A stretch of 55,865 nt of DNA. Origin: a virus. Taxonomy: Duplodnaviria > Caudoviricetes. Location of the stretch: IMG/VR virus record IMGVR_UViG_3300002026_002321, positions 1-55,865 of that record; one strand, given 5' to 3'. Position numbers and translations under genes: made by a program. Of the stretch, positions 43,463 to 55,573 are shown in pieces. A model generated the notes under the pieces. The model ran no database searches. It saw only the letters and a list, made by a program, of their open reading frames with translations, and was not told the DNA's origin. Every line of letters starts with the position of its first letter. Position 1 is the stretch's first letter.

Positions 43463-44362
43463 ATGGCCGAGCGCGTGATGTTGGCCCTGGGGCCGTTTCG
43501 ATTCGAGATGGGGCAGGCCACCTACCAGAGCCTGGCCATGAGCCAGTCCTGGCGCTGGAGCGAGCAGGCGCGCCTCAATCGTGAACCCGCGCTGCAGTTC
43601 ACCGGGCGCGAGCCCGCCGAGATTCGCCTGCAAGGGGTGTTGTTTCCTGGCTTTGATGCGGGTCTCGCGCAGGTGGAAGCCATGCGCGAACTGGCCGACC
43701 GGGGCGAGCCTTTGCAACTGGTCGATGGCCTGGGGCGAGTCTGGGGCTCCTGGGTGATTGTCGAAGTCGGTGACACCCGCAGTGTGCTGATGGACGACGG
43801 CCAGCCCCGGCGGGTCAGCTTTGAGGTCAAGCTCAAGGCCTACGGCGAAGATGAGACCATCACCGACTACTCGGGCGGCTGGAGTCCGTTTGCGGTGCTC
43901 TCGGTGATTGATTCAGTGCTCACCGACCCGGTGGGCGCGCTCGACGACCTGTTGGGCTCATTGCCTTCCCTGCTGGGCGATCTGGACACTGCAAGCGAGA
44001 TCAGTGCAGTGGCCTCCGTTCACACTGCCCTGAAGGAGTTGCTCTCAACCTTCAGCACCAGCCTCAATGGCCTGCACAGCGAACTGATGTCGGATGGACT
44101 GACGATTGACACTGTCGATCCCCTGGTCCAGCAGGTGATCACGGCAAGCATCGCAGCGCTGACATTAGCCAGCGCCCTGGATGCGCAAATCACCGCCTTG
44201 CTCACCGGGATCGATGCGCTGTGGACCACTGCCAGCCAGATTCAGGCGCGCACCGACCCGGTGCTGTACAGCCAGAGCCACAGCGAAATCGCCGGCGAGC
44301 TCGTCACCTTGCTGGAAAAAACCCACACCGCCCTGGCCGGGTTGCAGGAGGCCTTGCCATGA
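43463..44362 (+). CDS. P2 gpU-like tail protein with long C-terminal extension
   Basis: MLALG.F.F....YQ.L.....W.W..Q.R....PALQFTG...I.L.G; ~170 extra residues. Confidence 0.85.
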   Translation: MAERVMLALGPFRFEMGQATYQSLAMSQSWRWSEQARLNREPALQFTGREPAEIRLQGVLFPGFDAGLAQVEAMRELADRGEPLQLVDGLGRVWGSWVIVEVGDTRSVLMDDGQPRRVSFEVKLKAYGEDETITDYSGGWSPFAVLSVIDSVLTDPVGALDDLLGSLPSLLGDLDTASEISAVASVHTALKELLSTFSTSLNGLHSELMSDGLTIDTVDPLVQQVITASIAALTLASALDAQITALLTGIDALWTTASQIQARTDPVLYSQSHSEIAGELVTLLEKTHTALAGLQEALP

Positions 44363-44595
44363 CCAGCCAGAAGTTTGACACCCAGGTGCTGACCGCTCGC
44401 GAGGGCGAAATGCTCGATGCGCTGGTCTGGCGGCACTATGGGCGCCTCGATGTCCTGCCCCTGGTGCTGGACGCCAACCGGCAACTGGCACGACTGCCAG
44501 TCACCCAGATGCTGCGCATGCCTGCAGGCACGCCTGTGCTGATGCCCGCGCTCAACGACCAGCCGGTGCTGCCGCTGGTGCGCATCTGGTCATGA
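44359..44595 (+). CDS. P2 gpX-like tail protein
   Basis: GEMLDALVWRHYG......VL.AN..L...PAG..V..P....VRIW. Confidence 0.85.
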   Translation: MTSQKFDTQVLTAREGEMLDALVWRHYGRLDVLPLVLDANRQLARLPVTQMLRMPAGTPVLMPALNDQPVLPLVRIWS

Positions 44596-45728: not shown

Positions 45729-46058
45729 ATGCCAGACAAAGACCCTACCACCTACGGCCTGATCACCTACCTGTGGGTGACGGGGCTGGCTGCCTGGGGC
45801 GGACTGGTGAGCTTTTACCGCAAGGTCAAATCTGGCGAGACCCGGGCTTTCAACGTGGTGGAGCTCATTGGCGAGATTGCCACCTCGGCGTTTGCCGGTC
45901 TGATCACCTTCTGGTTGTGCGAGGCCGCGCAGATCGACCCCCTGGTTACCGCAGCCCTGGTGGGTATCTCCGGCCACATGGGCAGCCAGGCCCTGTATCA
46001 GTTTGAGCGCTGGGCGCAGGCCCGCCTGGACAAAGTCAATCTCAAGGAGCGGCCATGA
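45729..46058 (+). CDS. Holin (LydA-like)
   Basis: Three hydrophobic segments, WGG.V.F, S.FAG, G.SGHMG; precedes endolysin. Confidence 0.8.
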   Translation: MPDKDPTTYGLITYLWVTGLAAWGGLVSFYRKVKSGETRAFNVVELIGEIATSAFAGLITFWLCEAAQIDPLVTAALVGISGHMGSQALYQFERWAQARLDKVNLKERP

Positions 46059-46591
46059 ATGCTACGGACACCACGGACACGATGGACACCATCCTCGATG
46101 ACATCCTGCGCCGCGAGGGCGGCTATGTGAATCACCCCGCTGACCGGGGCGGACCCACGAACTTTGGCATCACCGCGCAGACGCTGGGTGACTGGCGCAA
46201 GCTGGGTCGAGCGGCCACAGCCGCTGAGGTCATGGCACTGGCCGAAACCGAGGCGCGTGCCATCTACCGCCAGCAGTACATCACTGGCCCAGGCTTTGAG
46301 GCCATCACGCATCCAGCGCTGCTGCATCTGCTGGTGGACGCTGCCGTGCATTCGGGCCCCAAGCGGGCGGTGCAGTGGTTGCAGGCAGCGCTGGGCGTTT
46401 CCGCAGATGGGGTGATCGGTCCCCAGACCCATGCAGCACTCGCTGCCGCTGACCAAGGTGTGCTCTACGGCAAGGTACTGGGCCAGCGTCTGCGCCACCT
46501 CGGACGGTTGATCACCAACGACCCCAAGCAGTCGGCGTTCGCGGCTGGCTGGATGAACCGGATGGCTGAATTCGTGGAGGACGCGGTATGA
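46055..46591 (+). CDS. Endolysin, GH108 with peptidoglycan-binding domain
   Basis: EGGYVNHPADRGGPTNFGIT; DGVIGP.T; GWMNR. Confidence 0.93.
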   Translation: MNATDTTDTMDTILDDILRREGGYVNHPADRGGPTNFGITAQTLGDWRKLGRAATAAEVMALAETEARAIYRQQYITGPGFEAITHPALLHLLVDAAVHSGPKRAVQWLQAALGVSADGVIGPQTHAALAAADQGVLYGKVLGQRLRHLGRLITNDPKQSAFAAGWMNRMAEFVEDAV

Positions 46592-47016
46592 CCCCGATCC
46601 TCACCACCCTGGCGCCGGGCCTGCTCGAAGCCGGCAGTCGCTTGATTGACCGGCTGATTCCCGATCCGTCTGAGCGCGAGAAGGCCAAGCTTGCGCTGCT
46701 GCAGGCCGAGGGGCAATTGGCACTGCAGGAGATGCAGACGAGTCTGTCAGCGATCCTGGCTGAGGCCAACTCAGCTGATCCCTGGACCAGCCGGGCACGG
46801 CCAAGCTTTCTGTACGTGATCTACGGTGTGATCCTGCTGTGCGTGCTGGGTGCCATCATCGGTATCTGGTGGCCCATGCATGTGTTCCAGGCCGCAGAGA
46901 ACCTGAACAAGCTACTTGGCGCGGTGCCTGAGAGCCTGTGGTGGCTGTTCGGTGCTGGCTACCTGGGCTACACCGGGGCGCGCAGCTTTGACAAGTGGCG
47001 TGGGCCGGTGCGCTGA
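46588..47016 (+). CDS. 3TM-holin-like membrane protein
   Basis: LID.LIPDP...AKL.L...EA.S.D.W.SR.RP, then hydrophobic segments; LGY.G.RS.DK. Confidence 0.75.
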   Translation: MTPILTTLAPGLLEAGSRLIDRLIPDPSEREKAKLALLQAEGQLALQEMQTSLSAILAEANSADPWTSRARPSFLYVIYGVILLCVLGAIIGIWWPMHVFQAAENLNKLLGAVPESLWWLFGAGYLGYTGARSFDKWRGPVR

Positions 47017-47051: not shown

Positions 47052-47099
47052 ATCCCCCGATCTCACTGCCCGCGCGGGTGGTGGGGTCGGGGGATTTTT
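47052..47099 (+). terminator. Strong hairpin terminator ending the late operon
   Basis: ATCCCCCGA...TCGGGGGAT long stem followed by TTTT. Confidence 0.75.
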
Positions 47100-47233
47100 G
47101 CGTTTGGGGGTGCGCCAGTAAAATCGCGACGTGTACACGGAGCGCAATCGTACTTTCCGGTTCCAAAAAAACTAACCCCGGGTTCATCACCAGACTCATT
47201 GGAGACTGGGAGAGGAATAGCCCGGGGACCGGA

Positions 47234-48400
47234 TCAGGTGATTTGCTCTTCTGAGGTGGCAACGAGAGATGCGTCAATGTTGCCATTGCCCAACGTTTCA
47301 CGACCACTAACGGTTACGCGCTTGTCAGTATTGAAGGCCAACAGCACTTCGTCAATCAACTCAGGAGGGAAGGAGCAAAAGTGTTCACGGCCGTCATTAG
47401 TTCCACGCAAGGTAAATGTGAAGTTGTCCTTGTCCATTTCAGGAATGAAGCCTGAAATTTGGCATATCCGCTCTTGGATAGATCTTGCCTTCCTGAGCGC
47501 GGTGCTGACACGCTTGGATGATTCACGTGTGAGCATGTAGCGTTTGTGCGAGTTTTTGAAGATACGTCCTCGCACCTCAACTGATTCAACGACGCCGGTT
47601 TGCCTAGGAACCAGCTTCTCAAGGGCTTCAAGAAGCTCAAGATCAATTTCGCTCGCATAGGCCGAATCAGGGGTGGCCGTTATCGCCCACTGAATTGCTT
47701 GTTGAAGTTGATTTCCGATTTCTTCGAATTCCTCGCTGAGATGTTCAGCGGTGCTATCGTCAGGCAAATTAAGTTGCTTGGGTTCAGGGAGTTTAAATGC
47801 CACTTCGAAGCTGTTATATACAAAACTTTGTGCCGACAAATCGTAGAACTGCCGGATTATGTTTGCTTTGCGACCTCTGGGGCGACCTTCCTTTTCAACT
47901 ACACGGCTAGCAATTTTTTTCAACGCAGTCGTTGCACCGTCAATCACTTGGCGGATTACGCTAGCTGGGACGTTGCCTTCGGATAACCCTTCGCCGATTG
48001 CACGTAACGCAAAAACGGGCTCCAAGTGGGGCCAGAGCATAACGCCTGGTTTTGGCAGAGCGTCATCAGGGACATCAGCCAAGGTACAGCGCCAGCTTTT
48101 TTGCGGCATTCCGTCGTACAAAACGTCCAGCACCCATACCCAAGGCTGATTCAGAGCGTCCCGAACGGATAAAGTGCCATTTTTTAAGCGATCGACGATT
48201 CGCGCATTCGTTGGAGCAACAATAAATCTCGAAACTCCATTTGTCTCGTCCGCTAAGTAATAGATCAGCGTACCTAACGAGTTACTTGCAGTAAATACTC
48301 TGGGTCCGTCGAATTCGTACAAAACTTCATCGGGCAGAATCCCGTCGAAAGCTTTGGTATCCAATTCAGGTGCGTTGATTTGCCAATCCATTTTCATCAC
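47234..48400 (-). CDS. Cargo protein: DUF6575-like N-terminus and OB-fold-like C-terminus
   Basis: Lower GC than phage core; LYEFDGPRVF...L..G..SVRDAL; C-terminal ISG.I.E.D....F.L...V.VSG. Confidence 0.7.
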   Translation of the reverse strand: MMKMDWQINAPELDTKAFDGILPDEVLYEFDGPRVFTASNSLGTLIYYLADETNGVSRFIVAPTNARIVDRLKNGTLSVRDALNQPWVWVLDVLYDGMPQKSWRCTLADVPDDALPKPGVMLWPHLEPVFALRAIGEGLSEGNVPASVIRQVIDGATTALKKIASRVVEKEGRPRGRKANIIRQFYDLSAQSFVYNSFEVAFKLPEPKQLNLPDDSTAEHLSEEFEEIGNQLQQAIQWAITATPDSAYASEIDLELLEALEKLVPRQTGVVESVEVRGRIFKNSHKRYMLTRESSKRVSTALRKARSIQERICQISGFIPEMDKDNFTFTLRGTNDGREHFCSFPPELIDEVLLAFNTDKRVTVSGRETLGNGNIDASLVATSEEQIT

Positions 48401-48401
48401 C

Positions 48402-48794
48402 TTAAGGGCTTATCGCCACAGAAAATGGTTCGGCACGGTTGACGCTCTCGTAAGGCCACCAAGTCGTATGTGTGGGGTGTCGATTGTTTGAGGTCAGCTT
48501 GACGACGCCATGATGAGGTTGCAACTGGCCACGCATCACATGCCGACCCAGTTTCGGGAACAGCTGGGTCAGGTGCTCGGCATCATTGAGTGTCCGAAAA
48601 AGAGACAGCCCCGCCCTCAGGCATTGAGGCCCCGTCGATTTCTTGCCCAGTTCCTCGTGTGACTTGAAATCTTCTTCAGAGGGAGGAATGGTTTTCGCAA
48701 CACGAAATAATTCGCCGCTAGCAGCCTCAGCGTCTTCTGGAGGGCATCCCTGAGGCCATGAGGAGGGGAATTTCACTTTTTTCTCGCTTGACAA
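48402..48794 (-). CDS. Cargo protein, putative ADP-ribosyltransferase-fold toxin
   Basis: TTG start after GAGAGG; CPP..A...LFR...DF.S...C..GLSLF...H.TWW; 1 nt from the next gene. Confidence 0.6.
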   Translation of the reverse strand: MSSEKKVKFPSSWPQGCPPEDAEAASGELFRVAKTIPPSEEDFKSHEELGKKSTGPQCLRAGLSLFRTLNDAEHLTQLFPKLGRHVMRGQLQPHHGVVKLTSNNRHPTHTTWWPYESVNRAEPFSVAISP

Positions 48795-48838
48795 ACCAAA
48801 TAACCTCTCATTTTAAAGCCCTGCCCGCAAGTCTGTCG

Positions 48839-50035
48839 CTACAAAGTTTCTGCCAAATTCGCCACCCCCACCCGCCGCTCCACCACATTCCCCACCACAT
48901 TGACCGCCTCCAGCATCGCCTGCGGCGACAAATGCGCATAGCGCATCGTCACCTTCGGATCGTGGTGCCCCAGCAGCTTTTGCACCTCATACAAGCTGCG
49001 CCCGGCGTTGACCAGGAAACTGGCGTAGCTGTGGCGCAAGTCATGCAATCGCAAACCATCCAAACCGACCTTCTTGCGGATCGAGTCCCACGCATGAAAA
49101 ATTGAACCTGGCGGCACCCTGGTCTTGGGATTGAAAAACACCCACGGCACATCCTGCTGGCGCGGCAGCGACTGCAGCAACTCGATGGCGGCATCCGACA
49201 AAGGAATGTGATGCACCTTCTTTGACTTCGAGCGGGTCGCTGGCACCGTCAGAATCTGGCGTGACCAGTCGATGTCATGCCACTTGGCATCGAGCACCTC
49301 GCGCTTTCTCGCCCCGGTGTACAGCAACAACCGAATCACCTGCCCCACCTGCACATTGCGATTGGTGTCGAGTTCATCAAACAACTGCTGTACCTCCGCC
49401 TGGCTCAGGTAACGCTCACGCGCGCCGTGATCCTCAAACGGCTCGATGCCATCGCACGGATTGCCATTGGGCGGCAAGCAGCCCCAGCGGATGGCGCAGT
49501 TATAAATGAACTTGGTCAGGATCAAGGCCCGGTTGCAAGTTGCAGCCGCATAGCCCTTGGTCTGCATGGCATGATGAAACGCCACCACATCCGAGCGCAT
49601 CACCCGGTTCATCCGCAAGGCGGCGAACGTCGGCAAGATGTGATTGCGCAGAAACGAGACATCCGTCTCCCAACTGCGCTTGCGGCTCATGGCGTAAGGC
49701 AGATAGCGTTCTTCGACGAAAGCCCCAAAGATCGGCACATCCTTGAAACGATGACTCTCCAGCTTTGGATCACCACCCTCAGAGACCATCTGGCGCATCT
49801 TGTGCGCCTTGGCCCGGGCATCGGCCAAACTGATCTCATCGAGCCGGCCAATATTGTTGAGCCGCACCTTGCCTGCAGCATCACGGTAGCGAAAGTAAAA
49901 GGTAGCCCCACCACTGGCACGATGCTCCAGCAAAAAGCCCCTGATCTCGGTATCAAAGTAACCCACCGCCCCGGATGTGGGCTCGCGCCCGGCCAGCGTG
50001 GCGATGAACTCGGCAGAAAGTGTTTGTGCAGGCAT
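48839..50035 (-). CDS. int: Tyrosine integrase with N-terminal arm-binding domain
   Basis: TGARKRE, HDLRHSYAS, LLGH...TMRYAH catalytic residues; AAGGAG RBS. Confidence 0.95.
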   Translation of the reverse strand: MPAQTLSAEFIATLAGREPTSGAVGYFDTEIRGFLLEHRASGGATFYFRYRDAAGKVRLNNIGRLDEISLADARAKAHKMRQMVSEGGDPKLESHRFKDVPIFGAFVEERYLPYAMSRKRSWETDVSFLRNHILPTFAALRMNRVMRSDVVAFHHAMQTKGYAAATCNRALILTKFIYNCAIRWGCLPPNGNPCDGIEPFEDHGARERYLSQAEVQQLFDELDTNRNVQVGQVIRLLLYTGARKREVLDAKWHDIDWSRQILTVPATRSKSKKVHHIPLSDAAIELLQSLPRQQDVPWVFFNPKTRVPPGSIFHAWDSIRKKVGLDGLRLHDLRHSYASFLVNAGRSLYEVQKLLGHHDPKVTMRYAHLSPQAMLEAVNVVGNVVERRVGVANLAETL

Positions 50036-50217: not shown

Positions 50218-50463
50218 ATGATCGATGGAAGACAAATACGCGCTGCCCGCGCCATGCTGGGCTGGAGCCGCGAAGAACTGCTCGATGCCTCGGGGATTTC
50301 CATGTCGGCGCTCTTGCGCATGGAAGGCAACCTGGCCGACAGCCGCAGTTCCACCCTCAACAAGGTGGTCAAGGCCCTGAGCCTGGCTGGGGTGGAGTTT
50401 GTCACGCGCGGGGATGGGGCCATTGGGGTGATGCTCAAGGGCGCAATAGCAGGTGAAGGGTAG
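50218..50463 (+). CDS. XRE-family HTH regulator
   Basis: QIRAARAMLGWSREEL..ASGIS..AL.R.E; AAGGAG RBS; divergent from int. Confidence 0.9.
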   Translation: MIDGRQIRAARAMLGWSREELLDASGISMSALLRMEGNLADSRSSTLNKVVKALSLAGVEFVTRGDGAIGVMLKGAIAGEG

Positions 50464-50545: not shown

Positions 50546-50770
50546 ATGATGGCCACCCCAATTGCAGCACGAGTACAAAAGCGCCGCGACGCCTTGCGCA
50601 TGGCTGGCCTGCGGCCCATCCAGATATGGGTGCCAGACACCCGGCGTCCTGACTTTTCTGACGAGTGCCGACGCCAATGCAGGCTCGTTGCCCAAGCAGA
50701 CCATCAAGATAGCGCTCTGGAGCAGTTTATGGACGAGGCGCTGGCTGACCTTGACGGCTGGGAGGACTGA
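50546..50770 (+). CDS. MazE-like antitoxin (DUF3018-type)
   Basis: RVQKRRDALR.AGLRPIQIWVPDTR.P.F..EC.RQ. Confidence 0.88.
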   Translation: MMATPIAARVQKRRDALRMAGLRPIQIWVPDTRRPDFSDECRRQCRLVAQADHQDSALEQFMDEALADLDGWED

Positions 50771-51093
50771 TGCGCGGCGACCTTGTCACCATCGCTCTCA
50801 CTGGCGATTTTGGTAAACCCCGACCCGCGTTAGTCATCCAGGCCAATCAGTTTGACGAACACACCACCGTCACGGTGTTGTTGCTCTCCAGCACACTGGT
50901 CGAGGCGCCACTGCTGCGCGTGAGCGTTGTCCCGGATGCCGACAACGGGCTGCAGAAGAAATCGCAGGTCATGATCGATAAGGCCATGACCATCAAGCGC
51001 GAAAAAATCGGCCCGGCGTTTGGGCGCATCGATCCCAACACGCTGGTTGAAATCGACCGCTGTCTGGCGGTATTTCTTGGAATTGCCAAGTAG
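50770..51093 (+). CDS. mazF: PemK/MazF-family endoribonuclease toxin
   Basis: RGD.V....GD.GKPRPALVIQ...NGL...SQ.MIDK. Confidence 0.92.
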   Translation: MRGDLVTIALTGDFGKPRPALVIQANQFDEHTTVTVLLLSSTLVEAPLLRVSVVPDADNGLQKKSQVMIDKAMTIKREKIGPAFGRIDPNTLVEIDRCLAVFLGIAK

Positions 51094-51424: not shown

Positions 51425-54400
51425 ATGCTCACTGCAAGTGCGGCAAGCATCAACGAAGGCGAGACCAACACGTTCACGATTACGGCTTCTGAGCCCGTTG
51501 CCGCGGATACAGTGGTCACCTTCCAGTTGAAGATCGACGCCACGGGCGACACCGCTCAGGCTGCTGACTTCAACGCAGGTGCTTTCAACCCAGTCACCGC
51601 CACCATCTTGGCTGGCCAGACCACTGCCTCTTTCGGCATTGCCGCCATCACCAACGACAATACGGAAGTGACCGAGAAGTACACCGTTCAAGCCACAGTG
51701 GCTGGCACGGCTTACTCTACGCAAGTCTCCATCCTTGACGGCGGTATCGGTGCTGGACAGACATTCGCGTTGACAAAGGGACTGGATTTGATTCCTGGCC
51801 TGATTGGCTCGAATGGCAACACCAGCAACTCCGGTGATGACACCATCATTGGTTCGATTCACACTTCCGACCCTGAGCTGAAGACCCTGTCCACTCTTGA
51901 CATCGTCAACGGCGGTACTGGTGTTGACACCCTGAGCGTTGCCACCGACGGCACGACCGTTGGCCTGCCAAACCTTTCTGGCGTCGAAATTGTCCAAGTG
52001 GATAGCGCTGGCGCGGCTACGGTAAATACCTCTACCGTCTCTGGCATCACCAACCTGAACGTGACCAAGGCAGCGGGTGCTGTGACTGCGACCGCAGCCG
52101 CAACCACCGACGTTGGCGTCTCTGTGAAGGGTGTTTCAGGCACGACTGTGGTCGTCAATGGCGGTAAAGACGTCAATGTCACCACGACCGACGCTGCTGA
52201 TGCCATCGACGTAGGCGCTACGGGTACTGATCCGGTCGGTGCTGTCACCATTACCGCCACCGGTGCGGCTGTTGCAAACAACGCCAACCCCAACATGGGC
52301 GCAATTACTGTGGGTGGTGGCAAGACCGTTAATGTGACCCAAAAGGCCACCAGCGACGCCAGCGCCATCGTGGCAGATGCAACGACCGAAACCGTTACTC
52401 AAGGCAACGTGACGGTTACCGCCAATGCCACCACCACCGACGTCACCGTCAAGCAAGACGCAGCTGTCACTGCCCAGAGCCGTGCTGCCGTCACCGGTGC
52501 CACCGAAGTAGCCAGCGTCAAGTTCACCAAGCTGGATGCCGGTGAATCCGTCACCATCAGCGGCCTGACCTTCACCGCAGCCCTTGGCAAGAACCTGACC
52601 GCTGACCAAGTGGCCCAGGCCTTTGCCAACCTGAGCGCCAGCGCCATCAAGCCGACGCAGATTGCTCCGGCAGGCACCGCCACCAACGACACGCAGGGTT
52701 CCGGCTCTAACGTCAACGGCACCTTCACCGGCGCCTTGCTGGCTGGCTGGACCTCCGGCGCTGCTGCTGGCGACACCGTGACCTTCACTGGTACAGCCAA
52801 TACCGCATTTGCAACCGACCTGGTCGCTTCGGCCAAGGCGACCGTCACCACCACCACCCAAGGCGTCACCGCTGTCACAGCGCAAAACACCCTGGGCGTG
52901 GCCAACGGCACCGTTACCATCGCGGGTGCTGCTGCGCTGAAGACAGTCACGGTCGACGGCTACGCTGCTTCCACTGGCGGTGCTGGCATCACCGGAGGCA
53001 CCAACAATGCGCTGGATACCATCAGCCTCTCCAATGGTGCTGGTTTTGAAGTTGACAGCGCTGCCGCCACCTTGGCGCTGACCCTGGCCAACGTCAACGG
53101 TACAGTCGATGTGCAAGCAGGCACCAAGAACCTGAACGCTGCTGTCAGCCACGCCAAGGCAACCGACACTTCGACGCTCGCTTCCGCTTCGGCAACCGCA
53201 GTCAAGGTGACCGGTACGGGCAATGTGGCAGGCACTACGGCTTCTGGTCTGACCGCTGCCACCAGCATCGACACCACCGGCATGACCGCTGGCAAGGCGA
53301 CCTTCACCATCGCCGACGGCACCGTCACCACCTACGCGGGCGGTGCAGGGGTGGACACTGTCACCATCACCAATGGTGGCACCGCCATCACCAAGGCCAT
53401 CGATCTGGGCGCTGGTGATGACACCCTGAAGCTGGATGTCAACGTCGTTGTGCCAACGGCCACCCTCAAGGGGGGCGAAGGTAACGACACCCTGTCGATG
53501 ACCGTTGCCAGCGCTGCGGCTCGCGACGGTGACAAGCTGTTGTCTGCCAAGCTGGACAGCTTCGAGCGTCTGACGCTGAACAATGCCGATACGGGTGGCG
53601 AAACCATCGACCTGGAAAACCTCGGCTTTGCCAACTACGTCACCACCAGCGGTTCGGGTGGCACCCTCACACTCGACAAGCTGGCCAATGGCGGTACGGT
53701 CGTGCTGACCGCTGCACCGACAACCGGTACAACGGTCAACATCAAGGACGCAGCCGAAACCGGCCACTCCAGCGACGTGCTCAATCTCGTGACTCGCGTG
53801 TCCACCGCGACTGTTGACCACAAGGTGCTGACCGCTGCCGATGTTGAAACTGTCAACATCAAGTCGGAAGACACCGATGTATCGACAACAACGGGCGGTG
53901 GTGTCAACACTAACCAACTGACCCTGGTTGCCACCAAAGCGACCAAGATCATGGTGGAAGGTAATGCTCACCTCGAACTGACCAACGCAGGCAACGCAGC
54001 GGTCACCGAGATCGACGCATCGACGATGACCGGTAACCTGACGGTGCAAGCCGCAGGCAACGCAGCCACCACCATCAAGGGCGGTCTGGGTAACGACAGC
54101 CTGAAGACGTCTGGTGGCGCAACCGGCGGTGGCGTGGCACAGGTAAGCACGCTGACCATCGTTAACGGCACAGCTGCTGCAGAGATGGCGATTGGTGACA
54201 AGCTCTCGGTGACCATCAACGGCACGACTGTGACGCAGGACTTCACCAACGACTTTGCAGATACCCTGACGGCACTGGAGGTCAAAACCGATGGTATTGA
54301 TGGCTATACGACATCAGTTAACACCGGCACCGGTGTGTTGACCATCACATCTGACGTCCCAGGCGTGGCGTTCACGGCGAGCACGACCTTCACCGCGAAC

Positions 54401-55573
54401 GACGCAGACATCTCGGGCACTTTTGCTGCGGTAGCTGCCACGTTGGACAAAGACACCCTCACGTTCACGCCAGGGGCTGCTGCTGCTGCCCCGGGCACTG
54501 GCGACCAGTGGGTCTTCACCATCACGCCGACGGTTGGCGCAGTTACGACCATCACCCAGACCTTTACTGTCGACTTTGCTACAACACTGGCGGCAATGAC
54601 GGCTCAGGTGGTTGCTGCTGGCTACACGGCGACGAACACCGCCACTGTCATGACCATCACTGGTACGGAAGCCATGGGTCCGATCTTGATCGGGGGCTAT
54701 ACCTTTACTAGTGCAGCTACAACAACATGTACCGGGGTTCCAGCAGAAGAAACTCAGAACTTCCTGGACACCGGAACGCTCACGCTGACCGAAACGGTGA
54801 CCATGGGGGCCGATGACACCATCACGGTGACGGTGACGGATGTGAAGAATGGATCGCAAACCTCTGCTTCGCAAGTCTTTACAACCGACTTCGACACCAC
54901 AATGGCAGCTGTCGTCACCAAGATTGAAGCCCTCACCGGCATTGATGGCACCACAACGGCTTACGTCGGTAGCACCAATGTGCTGACAGTGGGTAGCACC
55001 AGTGGCCAGATCACCAACATCCTGGTGAATGTGACTGACGCGGCCATGAACAGCGTGACTTCCACGTTCGATACGACCACGGCCAACGTCAGTGCCAATG
55101 GCGACACGCTGCTGGGTAATGCAGGTAACGACACCCTCTTCGCAGGTACCAATGGTGCCACGCTGACCGGTGGTGCTGATAATGACCTGTTCGTACTGTC
55201 AGCAACCTCGGCAACCAGCGGCACGAAGGAAGCCAACGCCTACAGCATCGTGACCGACTTTGCCGTCGGCGACGTGCTGCAACTGCAATACTTTGGTTCT
55301 GCAACCGCAGATGCCACCGGCTTTGCCAAGCTGACCGCGAACTTGAACGATGCCACGGCCTCCTTCTCCAGCTTCGCCGAGGCAGCAGTGCTGCAGGCGG
55401 CTACGGGTGGCGCGGTCTGGTACAACTTCAAGGGTGATGCCTACGTGGTTGTGGATAGTGGAACCAACGGTTCGAACTTCACCAATGGAGAAGACCTCAT
55501 CATCAAGCTGACCGGCATCGACGGTGCAAATCTGTCGTTCAACGCAGACTTCGCCACTGTTGCGCTGATCTAA
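51425..55573 (+). CDS. RTX-repeat S-layer-like protein (RsaA/SapA-like, type I secreted), possibly 5'-truncated
   Basis: Thr/Ala/Gly-rich; GQTFALT.G.D motif; nonapeptides GGAGVDTVT, LGAGDDTLK, GGEGNDTLS, GGLGNDSLK, GNAGNDTLF; no signal peptide; C-terminal D.IIKLTG. Confidence 0.85.
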   Translation: MLTASAASINEGETNTFTITASEPVAADTVVTFQLKIDATGDTAQAADFNAGAFNPVTATILAGQTTASFGIAAITNDNTEVTEKYTVQATVAGTAYSTQVSILDGGIGAGQTFALTKGLDLIPGLIGSNGNTSNSGDDTIIGSIHTSDPELKTLSTLDIVNGGTGVDTLSVATDGTTVGLPNLSGVEIVQVDSAGAATVNTSTVSGITNLNVTKAAGAVTATAAATTDVGVSVKGVSGTTVVVNGGKDVNVTTTDAADAIDVGATGTDPVGAVTITATGAAVANNANPNMGAITVGGGKTVNVTQKATSDASAIVADATTETVTQGNVTVTANATTTDVTVKQDAAVTAQSRAAVTGATEVASVKFTKLDAGESVTISGLTFTAALGKNLTADQVAQAFANLSASAIKPTQIAPAGTATNDTQGSGSNVNGTFTGALLAGWTSGAAAGDTVTFTGTANTAFATDLVASAKATVTTTTQGVTAVTAQNTLGVANGTVTIAGAAALKTVTVDGYAASTGGAGITGGTNNALDTISLSNGAGFEVDSAAATLALTLANVNGTVDVQAGTKNLNAAVSHAKATDTSTLASASATAVKVTGTGNVAGTTASGLTAATSIDTTGMTAGKATFTIADGTVTTYAGGAGVDTVTITNGGTAITKAIDLGAGDDTLKLDVNVVVPTATLKGGEGNDTLSMTVASAAARDGDKLLSAKLDSFERLTLNNADTGGETIDLENLGFANYVTTSGSGGTLTLDKLANGGTVVLTAAPTTGTTVNIKDAAETGHSSDVLNLVTRVSTATVDHKVLTAADVETVNIKSEDTDVSTTTGGGVNTNQLTLVATKATKIMVEGNAHLELTNAGNAAVTEIDASTMTGNLTVQAAGNAATTIKGGLGNDSLKTSGGATGGGVAQVSTLTIVNGTAAAEMAIGDKLSVTINGTTVTQDFTNDFADTLTALEVKTDGIDGYTTSVNTGTGVLTITSDVPGVAFTASTTFTANDADISGTFAAVAATLDKDTLTFTPGAAAAAPGTGDQWVFTITPTVGAVTTITQTFTVDFATTLAAMTAQVVAAGYTATNTATVMTITGTEAMGPILIGGYTFTSAATTTCTGVPAEETQNFLDTGTLTLTETVTMGADDTITVTVTDVKNGSQTSASQVFTTDFDTTMAAVVTKIEALTGIDGTTTAYVGSTNVLTVGSTSGQITNILVNVTDAAMNSVTSTFDTTTANVSANGDTLLGNAGNDTLFAGTNGATLTGGADNDLFVLSATSATSGTKEANAYSIVTDFAVGDVLQLQYFGSATADATGFAKLTANLNDATASFSSFAEAAVLQAATGGAVWYNFKGDAYVVVDSGTNGSNFTNGEDLIIKLTGIDGANLSFNADFATVALI

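Follow-up and report, generated by a model that had tools for sequence, protein, structure and literature searches.

PD-T4-10, an anti-phage system of Escherichia coli ECOR65, was obtained by selecting for T4 resistance and protects against T-even phages through abortive infection (Vassallo et al., 2022; PMC9519451). In the parts of that paper dealing with the system, PD-T4-10B is reported to be toxic when expressed alone and to be fully neutralised by co-expression of PD-T4-10A; PD-T4-10A could not be deleted, and deletion of PD-T4-10B abolished resistance to T4. The same parts offer no predicted function for either protein, HHpred having returned probabilities of 20% or less (PMC9519451). 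We describe here a two-gene cassette, consisting of genes A and B, in the IMG/VR virus record IMGVR_UViG_3300002026_002321, a linear record of 55,865 bases that is estimated to be 89% complete and that we call the window, meaning the whole stretch at its full length. The two genes are co-directional on the minus strand, A then B, and lie downstream of a tyrosine integrase. On the sequence comparisons set out below, the cassette is a divergent variant of PD-T4-10, in which A and the N-terminal domain of B are distant homologues of the PD-T4-10 A and B proteins.

Another group of described systems bears on the locus through the fold predicted for A, which is that of an ADP-ribosyltransferase (ART). 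RES-Xre, MbcT-MbcA, ParT-ParS and DarT-DarG are two-gene modules of mobile elements that share this fold class with A (Z 4.3-5.7), and in each of them the ART protein is the toxin. A differs from these ART-fold toxins of toxin-antitoxin (TA) systems in that its homologue PD-T4-10A is, by experiment, the neutralising partner. MntA of HepT-MntA is an enzymatic (type VII) antitoxin; the likeness is one of analogy only, MntA being an antitoxin that acts by modifying its toxin and having an enzyme fold different from that of A. In the literature collection searched, we found no mechanism for PD-T4-10, and neither an ART-type antitoxin nor an ART fold in PD-T4-10A.

Relation of the cassette to PD-T4-10

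When the cassette was compared with the PADLOC models, A matched PD-T4-10_A at E 6.7e-5 (residues 15-126 on 23-143 of 148, that is, 121/148 positions) and B matched PD-T4-10_B at E 0.0027 (residues 22-119 on positions 18-117 of 353). The same two models were matched within the family, by 19 of 40 A proteins (best 1e-7), for which PD-T4-10_A was the sole family matched, and by 13 of 31 B proteins (best 2.5e-9). Judged from the scores alone, the window copy would probably not be called by PADLOC. A sequence-only reading of this DNA had been unable to match the pair to a named system; that statement has to be withdrawn, since the PADLOC check matched both PD-T4-10 models and alignment to the E. 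coli proteins agrees.

The E. coli proteins were located by the gene-specific part of a primer given in the supplement of PMC9519451. This sequence, from the start of PD-T4-10B, matched exactly in 13 of 5,426 complete E. coli genomes; a family-search route to PD-T4-10 succeeded in 0/3 genomes and gave one weak match in 400 genomes of one class, with the window's record at E 5e-5. In E. coli 13C1079T (L125, NZ_CP019267.1 2246500-2250020), PD-T4-10 is composed of a hypothetical protein of 171 amino acids (aa) followed by a 363-aa DUF6575 protein, with an overlap of 4 nucleotides (nt). The site lies in a P2-like prophage, between a replication endonuclease and a truncated portal gene, and an AIPR-family (Abi-like) gene comes directly after the pair.

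Alignment of the A profile with E. coli PD-T4-10A by hhalign gave a probability of 91.5% and E 8.5e-7 over 112 columns at about 21% identity, and C17, R31, C58, S64, G83, G96 and H109 are identical in the two. The B profile aligned with PD-T4-10B over B residues 10-126 on 6-124 of 363 (116 columns, E 4.9e-5), and no counterpart of B residues ~127-388, the helical and OB parts, was detected in PD-T4-10B. We therefore file the cassette as a variant rather than as a plain member of PD-T4-10, because homology was not found over the full length of B. The two loci share a small-then-large gene order, near overlap of the genes and carriage by a prophage; A is distantly homologous along nearly all of the protein and keeps the Cys, Arg, Cys, Ser and His positions, and the DUF6575-like N domain of B is homologous as well. 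They differ in the W112/W113 pair of A, which is F/H in PD-T4-10A, and in their hosts, which are environmental Pseudomonadota, Planctomycetota, Myxococcota and others for the window's family versus E. coli for PD-T4-10.

Predicted fold and conserved residues of A

The model of A (40 sequences) had a predicted local distance difference test score (pLDDT) of 93.2 and a predicted template modelling score of 0.86. We searched the PDB with VIA-align, independently of Foldseek, over 48,161 chains and judged the 50 rows obtained by their titles. Nearly all of these rows were ARTs or toxins that use nicotinamide adenine dinucleotide (NAD), at Z 7.5-3.5. The best match was KptA (Z 7.5, root-mean-square deviation (rmsd) 3.0 over 88 residues), accompanied by Scabin (Z 6.0), TreX (6.0), VPA0770 (5.7), heat-labile toxin (LT; 5.4), Tpt1 (5.3), Xre-RES (5.3) and pertussis toxin (5.1), with diphtheria toxin, MbcT, Tse2, DarT, ParT, Arr and PARPs further down. 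In a second structural look, with Z 7.6-4.8, the top 13 rows were all C-terminal lobes of Tpt1/KptA (Z 6.5-7.6), and the best Foldseek rows, though weak, were mostly ADP-ribosyltransferases. The ART fold predicted for A, nearest to the NAD lobe of Tpt1/KptA, is a safe call because the list of matches is consistent, despite the middling single Z scores. An ART-like fold had been suspected from the letters alone; the VIA-align rows and the second look bear this out, and the Foldseek check does so in the kind of protein matched but not in the significance of the match.

The likeness to Tpt1/KptA is structural. The C-terminal NAD lobe of these enzymes is the best match of A, with an rmsd of ~3.0 A over 85-93 residues, but identity is 8-17% with no match at the level of sequence, and A is without the N-terminal nucleic-acid-binding lobe. 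The catalytic set of Tpt1 is Arg-His-Arg-Arg, for which A has no evident equivalent. A also resembles RES proteins, which are named after their R-E-S residues, in the residue order R31...E48...S64 and in structure (Z 5.3-5.7, Xre-RES and VPA0770), without a sequence match. No ART or RES model was matched among the Pfam families, where 40 A members gave only chance rows at E <= 1, and a search of PDB chain sequences with the A and B profiles gave no meaningful match. In the ESM Atlas the nearest named cluster of A is Arr-ms (0.78), a weak lead.

When relatives of A were searched for exhaustively with a profile of 40 sequences, 2,782 clusters (50% identity) were recovered at E <= 0.001, 1,503 of them at <= 1e-10; a word-indexed search had given 7 relatives of A. 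Residues were counted in 150 aligned family members, residue number being the printed alignment position + 3. The motifs LFR (R31), GLSLF (S64) and HTTWW (H109-W113), to which the sequence-only reading had drawn attention, are all present and are conserved across the alignment: S64 in 150/150, H109 in 148/148, W113 in 147/147 and R31 in 128/144 sequences, the last being Met or Leu in a sub-clade (e.g. L012-L015, L036, L050). Two cysteines not flagged there are conserved as well, C17 (140/141) and C58 (148/150), and E48 and G96 are found in 131/150 and 147/150. The mean pairwise distance is 0.567 for A and 0.605 for the B N domain, so that the conservation of A is no lower than that of its partner.

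In the model, R31 ends strand 27-33, S64 lies in strand 63-66 and H109 opens strand 109-114. An R-S-E or H-Y-E triad at strands 1, 2 and 5 is the ART catalytic motif, R-S-E being that of cholera-type ARTs. Active-site positions of A were assigned by strand order, with no superposition, and on this basis A would retain the Arg and Ser of the R-S-E scheme with a His at the position expected for Glu. The ART signature of an Arg strand followed by a Ser strand, which the earlier reading had invoked, would on this assignment be represented by R31 and S64, but the classical R-S-E set is incomplete, with His in place of Glu and the Arg lost in ~11% of members. C17, C58 and H109 could equally form a metal (zinc) site. 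No fused A-B form was found among 343 longer candidates, which is weak evidence; the longer A-matching proteins proved to be over-extended gene calls, and one (P0211) is a truncated A behind unrelated sequence.

Linkage of A to a modular partner and the integrase-lysis slot

The genes are real, since conserved relatives of A and of B are encoded at more than 100 loci. Of 56 B-started loci, taken from one-per-species genomes of Pseudomonadota, Planctomycetota, Myxococcota, Acidobacteriota and others, 49 have an A-like open reading frame (ORF) that runs up to the start of B, four of these being remnants; the seven loci without A include one at the end of a contig and another that is a fragment. 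An A-started set, which used a sub-clade pattern, comprised 61 metagenome loci, 59 with an A match and 57 of those with 150 nt or more of sequence after A; in all but one of these 57 the next gene is a B-like ORF. The link between A and the DUF6575 domain is nearly obligate across phyla, in agreement with the expectation of the sequence-only reading that the genes are co-conserved. Divergence in A is correlated with divergence in the B N domain (Mantel r 0.755, 0/999 permutations, 73 non-redundant pairs), which at the level of sequence shows co-inheritance, not contact. Defence or mobile-element genes beside the relatives include Abi_2, type I restriction-modification (R-M), MazF, AAA_21, SMEK and a phage tail gene, judged from Pfam names; the rest of the neighbourhoods consist of housekeeping genes.

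The B model (pLDDT 82.6) falls into three parts, as had been read from the sequence: residues 25-136 make up a beta-rich N domain, 146-308 are helical and 310-382 form an OB domain. The DUF6575-like nature of the N-terminal part is likewise upheld. Window B matches Pfam DUF6575 (PF20215) at 24.5 bits and E 2.1e-5, under the gathering cut-off of 26.6 bits, and its relatives in L043 (32.7 bits), L039 (31.8) and L038 (30.2) lie above it; the 385-aa B protein of the window carries PF20215.4 in its database listing. E. coli PD-T4-10B scores 22.9 bits against the same model and bears the PGAP name DUF6575. The ESM Atlas cluster closest to the B N domain is one of DUF6575 proteins (0.80), a weak lead. 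Residues 308-388 match OB folds by VIA-align at Z 10.3-7.8, to SSB, RPA, PriB, SilF and the B subunits of AB5 toxins, with an rmsd of 2.0-3.0 over ~70-78 residues; such matches fill the structural match lists for the whole B model, and a short B relative has a weak Pfam tRNA_anti-codon OB match. Whole-length look-alikes of B in BFVD were a DUF6575 protein from a Siphoviridae contig (E 3.7e-12), Leptospira phage LE1 Q6NE06 (1.2e-9) and a Myoviridae protein (8.9e-7). A word-indexed search gave 127 relatives of B, and tblastn of B gave no match in 50,697 phage records and one weak match in plasmids. B residues 220-364 also match PADLOC PDC-M32A (E 4e-5), as do 22/31 members of the B family. The cassette differs from the PADLOC candidate system PDC-M32 in that only the helical/OB part of B matches and A has no match to PDC-M32B; in the part of PMC12429752 that mentions it, PDC-M32 is merely listed as a PADLOC hit.

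Across the 56 genome loci, B takes the form N+middle+OB, which is that of the window, in 30, N+OB in 8, N only in 7, and N with a long C-terminus carrying Peptidase_M78 in 3; it is split in two frames in 5 and a fragment in 3. Only the N-terminal ~130 residues of B are constant alongside A, and the C-terminus is exchangeable. The M78-fused long B proteins (L036:6007-7887, L050:5944-7827, L052:648-2384) contain an ImmA/IrrE-type Peptidase_M78 at E 2.6e-10 to 4.8e-8. The pair in L003 is closely followed by a separate M78 gene, a MazF gene and a type I R-M S subunit. Directly after four N-only B genes comes a conserved third gene of ~160-200 aa (L039:6416-6901, L048:6384-6992, L053:6414-6887, L063:4348-4914), so that the system there has three genes; this third gene had no Pfam match in the two loci tested, L039 and L048.

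The slot between the integrase and the lysis genes was compared in 33 viral contigs with an integrase 73-83% identical to that of the window, 23 of which also have the holin with three transmembrane (TM) segments at ~95% identity. In the 22 phages examined (integrase about 82% identical; L137 dropped as a repeat of L136), the distance from integrase to holin is 0.9-4.2 kb and at least 10 different gene sets are found inside. A-B occurs in only one of these 22 other slots, L134 (same contig as L059), with DNA 81-84% identical to the window. PADLOC was applied to 25 of the 29 ORF clusters, leaving aside two short ORFs (70 and 76 aa) and the A and B genes of L134; 13 of the 21 other slots have a defence-model match at E <= 1e-5 by cluster membership: AbiEi/AbiEii (L130, L132, L150, L148), AbiLi/AbiLii (L143, L156, L144, L155), RmrA-like (L140, L147, L158), PD-T4-5 (L149), PDC-S01 (L154) and PDC-S20 (L148). 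The cargo of the other 8 of 21 is without any PADLOC match at this threshold. The integrase-lysis slot is a defence hotspot in the related phages, as the sequence-only reading had supposed of the integrase-adjacent position. Four of the phages (L129, L135, L138, L139; e.g. L138:6708-9001) carry in the same slot, on the opposite strand, a conserved three-gene set encoding 283, 209 and 264 aa, with no PADLOC match at E <= 1e-5; by its position, this set is a candidate for uncharacterised defence cargo.

The coordinates of the cassette and its surroundings are collected in Table 1. As called, A and B are separated by one base (48401), and the integrase stop and the TTG of A by 44 nt, which agrees with the spacing noticed at first. 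The real start of A is probably GTG 48776 (124 aa), slightly inside the called ORF, because the ESM Atlas entry begins at residue 7 and homologues begin MNFP or MKFP, and that of B is probably ATG 48391 (385 aa), because the database entry P0008 is 385 aa and homologues begin MDW; with these starts the gaps are 60 nt (integrase-A) and 10 nt (A-B). The cassette is more AT-rich than the phage core, also as first described: the GC content of the whole cassette is 0.50 (A 0.537, B 0.488), versus 0.632 for the core (1-47016), with 0.583 for the integrase, and in sliding windows it is 0.48-0.51 in the cassette versus 0.63-0.68 in the core. Integrase, A and B run toward the terminator of the converging lysis operon, whose last gene ends at 47016, and the convergence reported earlier is therefore real. 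P2-type tail families (GpU, tail protein X, GpD) are on the plus strand ahead of the lysis genes. Promoter-like sites in the region are no more numerous than in shuffled sequence (consensus scan), and neither a tRNA nor an att-like direct repeat was found in the window.

Table 1. Features of the cassette and flanking region in the window
Feature	Coordinates	Strand	Description and evidence
Gene A	48402..48794	-	130 aa from TTG 48794; small protein with predicted ART fold; ORF listing
Gene B	47234..48400	-	388 aa from GTG; ORF listing
B residues 1-140, DUF6575-like N domain	47981..48400	-	Pfam, PADLOC, hhalign, Mantel
B residues 141-308, mostly helical middle	47477..47980	-	Model secondary structure; absent from short B forms
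B residues 309-388 + stop codon, C-terminal OB fold	47234..47476	-	VIA-align
Tyrosine integrase	48839..50035	-	398 aa; Pfam Phage_integrase 6.3e-30, Arm-DNA-bind_3 6.7e-14
Sigma-70-like promoter match, weak	48810..48839	-	Integrase-A gap; consensus scan, 9/12 matches
Terminator hairpin of converging lysis operon	47052-47095	+	20-pair stem then T-run; strong
Lysis genes: LydA-type holin, GH108 endolysin, 3-TM holin	45729-47016	+	

On the far side of the integrase lies an Xre-type helix-turn-helix gene (50218-50463), which is kept beside the integrase in related phages, and beyond it a MazE-like/PemK-MazF pair (50546-50770 and 50770-51093; Pfam 4.1e-33 and 1.8e-19) that has no match in any of the 33 related phage loci. 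A 1,382-aa ORF (51425-55573) matches no Pfam family at E <= 0.001; a 51-nt stretch within it (53799-53849) is 71% like 44360-44410, the start of the tail X gene. Elsewhere in the window, a 44-nt direct repeat occurs five times between 14818 and 17725 (66-100% identity to the reference copy), the copies being spaced 356-1063 nt apart and apparently intergenic. Window positions 47100-48900 are present in DNA runs that belong to 6 coded studies and bear the label microbial mat metagenome, and at least half of the sampled words of this stretch occur in five microbial mat runs; no RNA run was listed among the 9 sequencing runs containing the cassette stretch.

Proposed roles of A and B and the alternatives

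We consider it somewhat better than an even chance that the cassette is a divergent TA-like abortive-infection module of the PD-T4-10 type, expressed by the lysogen and carried as hotspot cargo by a temperate phage with a P2-like tail. The core of A and the DUF6575 domain is exactly what the cassette shares with PD-T4-10, and the roles are transferred from PD-T4-10 on that ground. The analysis shows the gene structure, folds, homology, linkage and hotspot, and we infer the toxicity of B, its neutralisation by A, contact between A and B, any enzymatic activity and a part in defence. B, probably via its DUF6575 domain, would arrest growth, and A would keep B off until infection by docking on that domain and neutralising B either by simple binding or, with roughly equal likelihood, by NAD-dependent modification. 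The exchangeable C-terminal modules of B (OB, M78 or a separate third gene) may serve sensing or targeting, and the modelled helical/OB module of the window's B probably binds single-stranded nucleic acid for such a purpose. The sequence-only reading had cast the small protein as the toxin and the large one as the sensor. The experiment reported for PD-T4-10 gave the opposite, B being toxic and A neutralising (PMC9519451), and by analogy that assignment is probably reversed.

We regard it as about evenly balanced whether A uses NAD, because A is no less conserved than its partner and has invariant polar residues at ART active-site positions; such residues, together with high conservation, would be unusual for a purely stoichiometric antitoxin. 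That A neutralises B by ADP-ribosylating it seems to us unlikely. We would call it rather unlikely that A is an enzymatic, NAD-dependent ART antitoxin that holds either the DUF6575 domain or nucleic acid bound by the OB domain in an ADP-ribosylated, inactive state; infection would then be sensed when the modification is lost, whether because NAD is depleted, A is shut off or a phage hydrolase acts.

Several observations weigh against the proposal that the cassette is a PD-T4-10-type module with B as the toxin. Foldseek gave no PDB match for the A model at E <= 0.001 (best 0.15 and above), and the structural Z scores of A are middling (below 8). Catalysis by A is uncertain because R31 is replaced in 16/144 members (about 11%) and there is no conserved Glu. 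For B, the hhalign probability was only 67.8%, the match of window B to PD-T4-10_B (E 0.0027) covers 100/353 positions, and toxicity is not confidently transferable because about two thirds of B are unrelated to PD-T4-10B. A few B genes are without A (L008, L037, L043, L045, L049), and defence or mobile-element genes, judged from Pfam names, are present in only about 10 of 22 relatives' neighbourhoods. By appearance, an OB fold or an M78 peptidase would suit sensing or regulation better than killing, and the ART-fold TA proteins matched by A (RES, ParT, MbcT, DarT) are all toxins, not antitoxins.

In an arrangement along the lines of the sequence-only reading, A would be the effector, a toxin like RES, ParT or DarT that consumes NAD or ADP-ribosylates, and B would be its antitoxin and sensor, the DUF6575 domain holding A inactive and the OB, M78 or other module releasing it on sensing phage nucleic acid or protein. 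The matches of A to RES, ParT, MbcT, DarT and Tre toxins fit this arrangement, as does the fact that A is the constant, constrained partner (S64 and H109 being invariant) of a protein with an exchangeable, sensor-like C-terminus; the N-domain-only forms of B would make a minimal antitoxin, and the E. coli experiment may not transfer to a B that is unrelated to PD-T4-10B beyond residue ~126. Against it stand the PD-T4-10 results themselves, in which B alone is toxic, A neutralises and A cannot be deleted (PMC9519451), and the circumstance that A and the DUF6575 domain are precisely the parts common to PD-T4-10. The lack of a conserved catalytic Glu, the loss of Arg31 in 16/144 and the absence of any Pfam ART or RES match in 40 members also argue against a toxin of this class. 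We think this arrangement unlikely, yet it stays alive because the matched ART-fold TA proteins are all toxins and two thirds of B are unrelated.

A plain addiction or stabilisation TA pair, or a moron for lysogen fitness, without phage defence and in a permissive cargo slot, is in our view distinctly unlikely. It would sit well with the MazE/MazF pair just past the integrase, with the housekeeping genes that make up about half of the relatives' neighbourhoods and with the 8 of 21 alternative slot cargos that match no defence model. However, PD-T4-10 came from a selection for T4 resistance (PMC9519451), the other 13 alternative cargos of the same slot do match defence models, and relatives of the cassette adjoin Abi_2, type I R-M and MazF genes. 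It is very unlikely that A as NAD lobe and the B OB domain as nucleic-acid lobe make up a split nucleic-acid ADP-ribosyltransferase acting on the ends or bases of phage or host DNA or RNA: A is nearest the NAD lobes of Tpt1/KptA over a range without the RNA-binding lobe (chain residues ~85-180), its next neighbours are the DNA-modifying Scabin/ScARP and the OB fold of B is SSB/RPA-like, but the Z scores are middling, many relatives are without OB (N only 7 and N+M78 3 of 56) with A unchanged, and the toxicity of PD-T4-10B alone would be left unexplained (PMC9519451).

The reading of the cassette as a PD-T4-10-type module places an experimentally validated anti-phage system that is mechanistically blank in a wider setting. 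PD-T4-10 represents the E. coli end of a large family that spans phyla, the constant core of which is the small protein and the DUF6575 domain, with exchangeable C-terminal modules. The ART fold predicted for a PD-T4-10A-type 'antitoxin', with conserved Cys17, Arg31, Cys58, Ser64 and His109 (R31 not being invariant), is a new lead that makes an uncharacterised system testable by specific point mutants and NAD assays. If A does neutralise B as an enzyme, it would be the first antitoxin of the ART class and would represent a new way to neutralise a toxin, and it would explain PD-T4-10 together with its family, which numbers over 2,700 sequence clusters.

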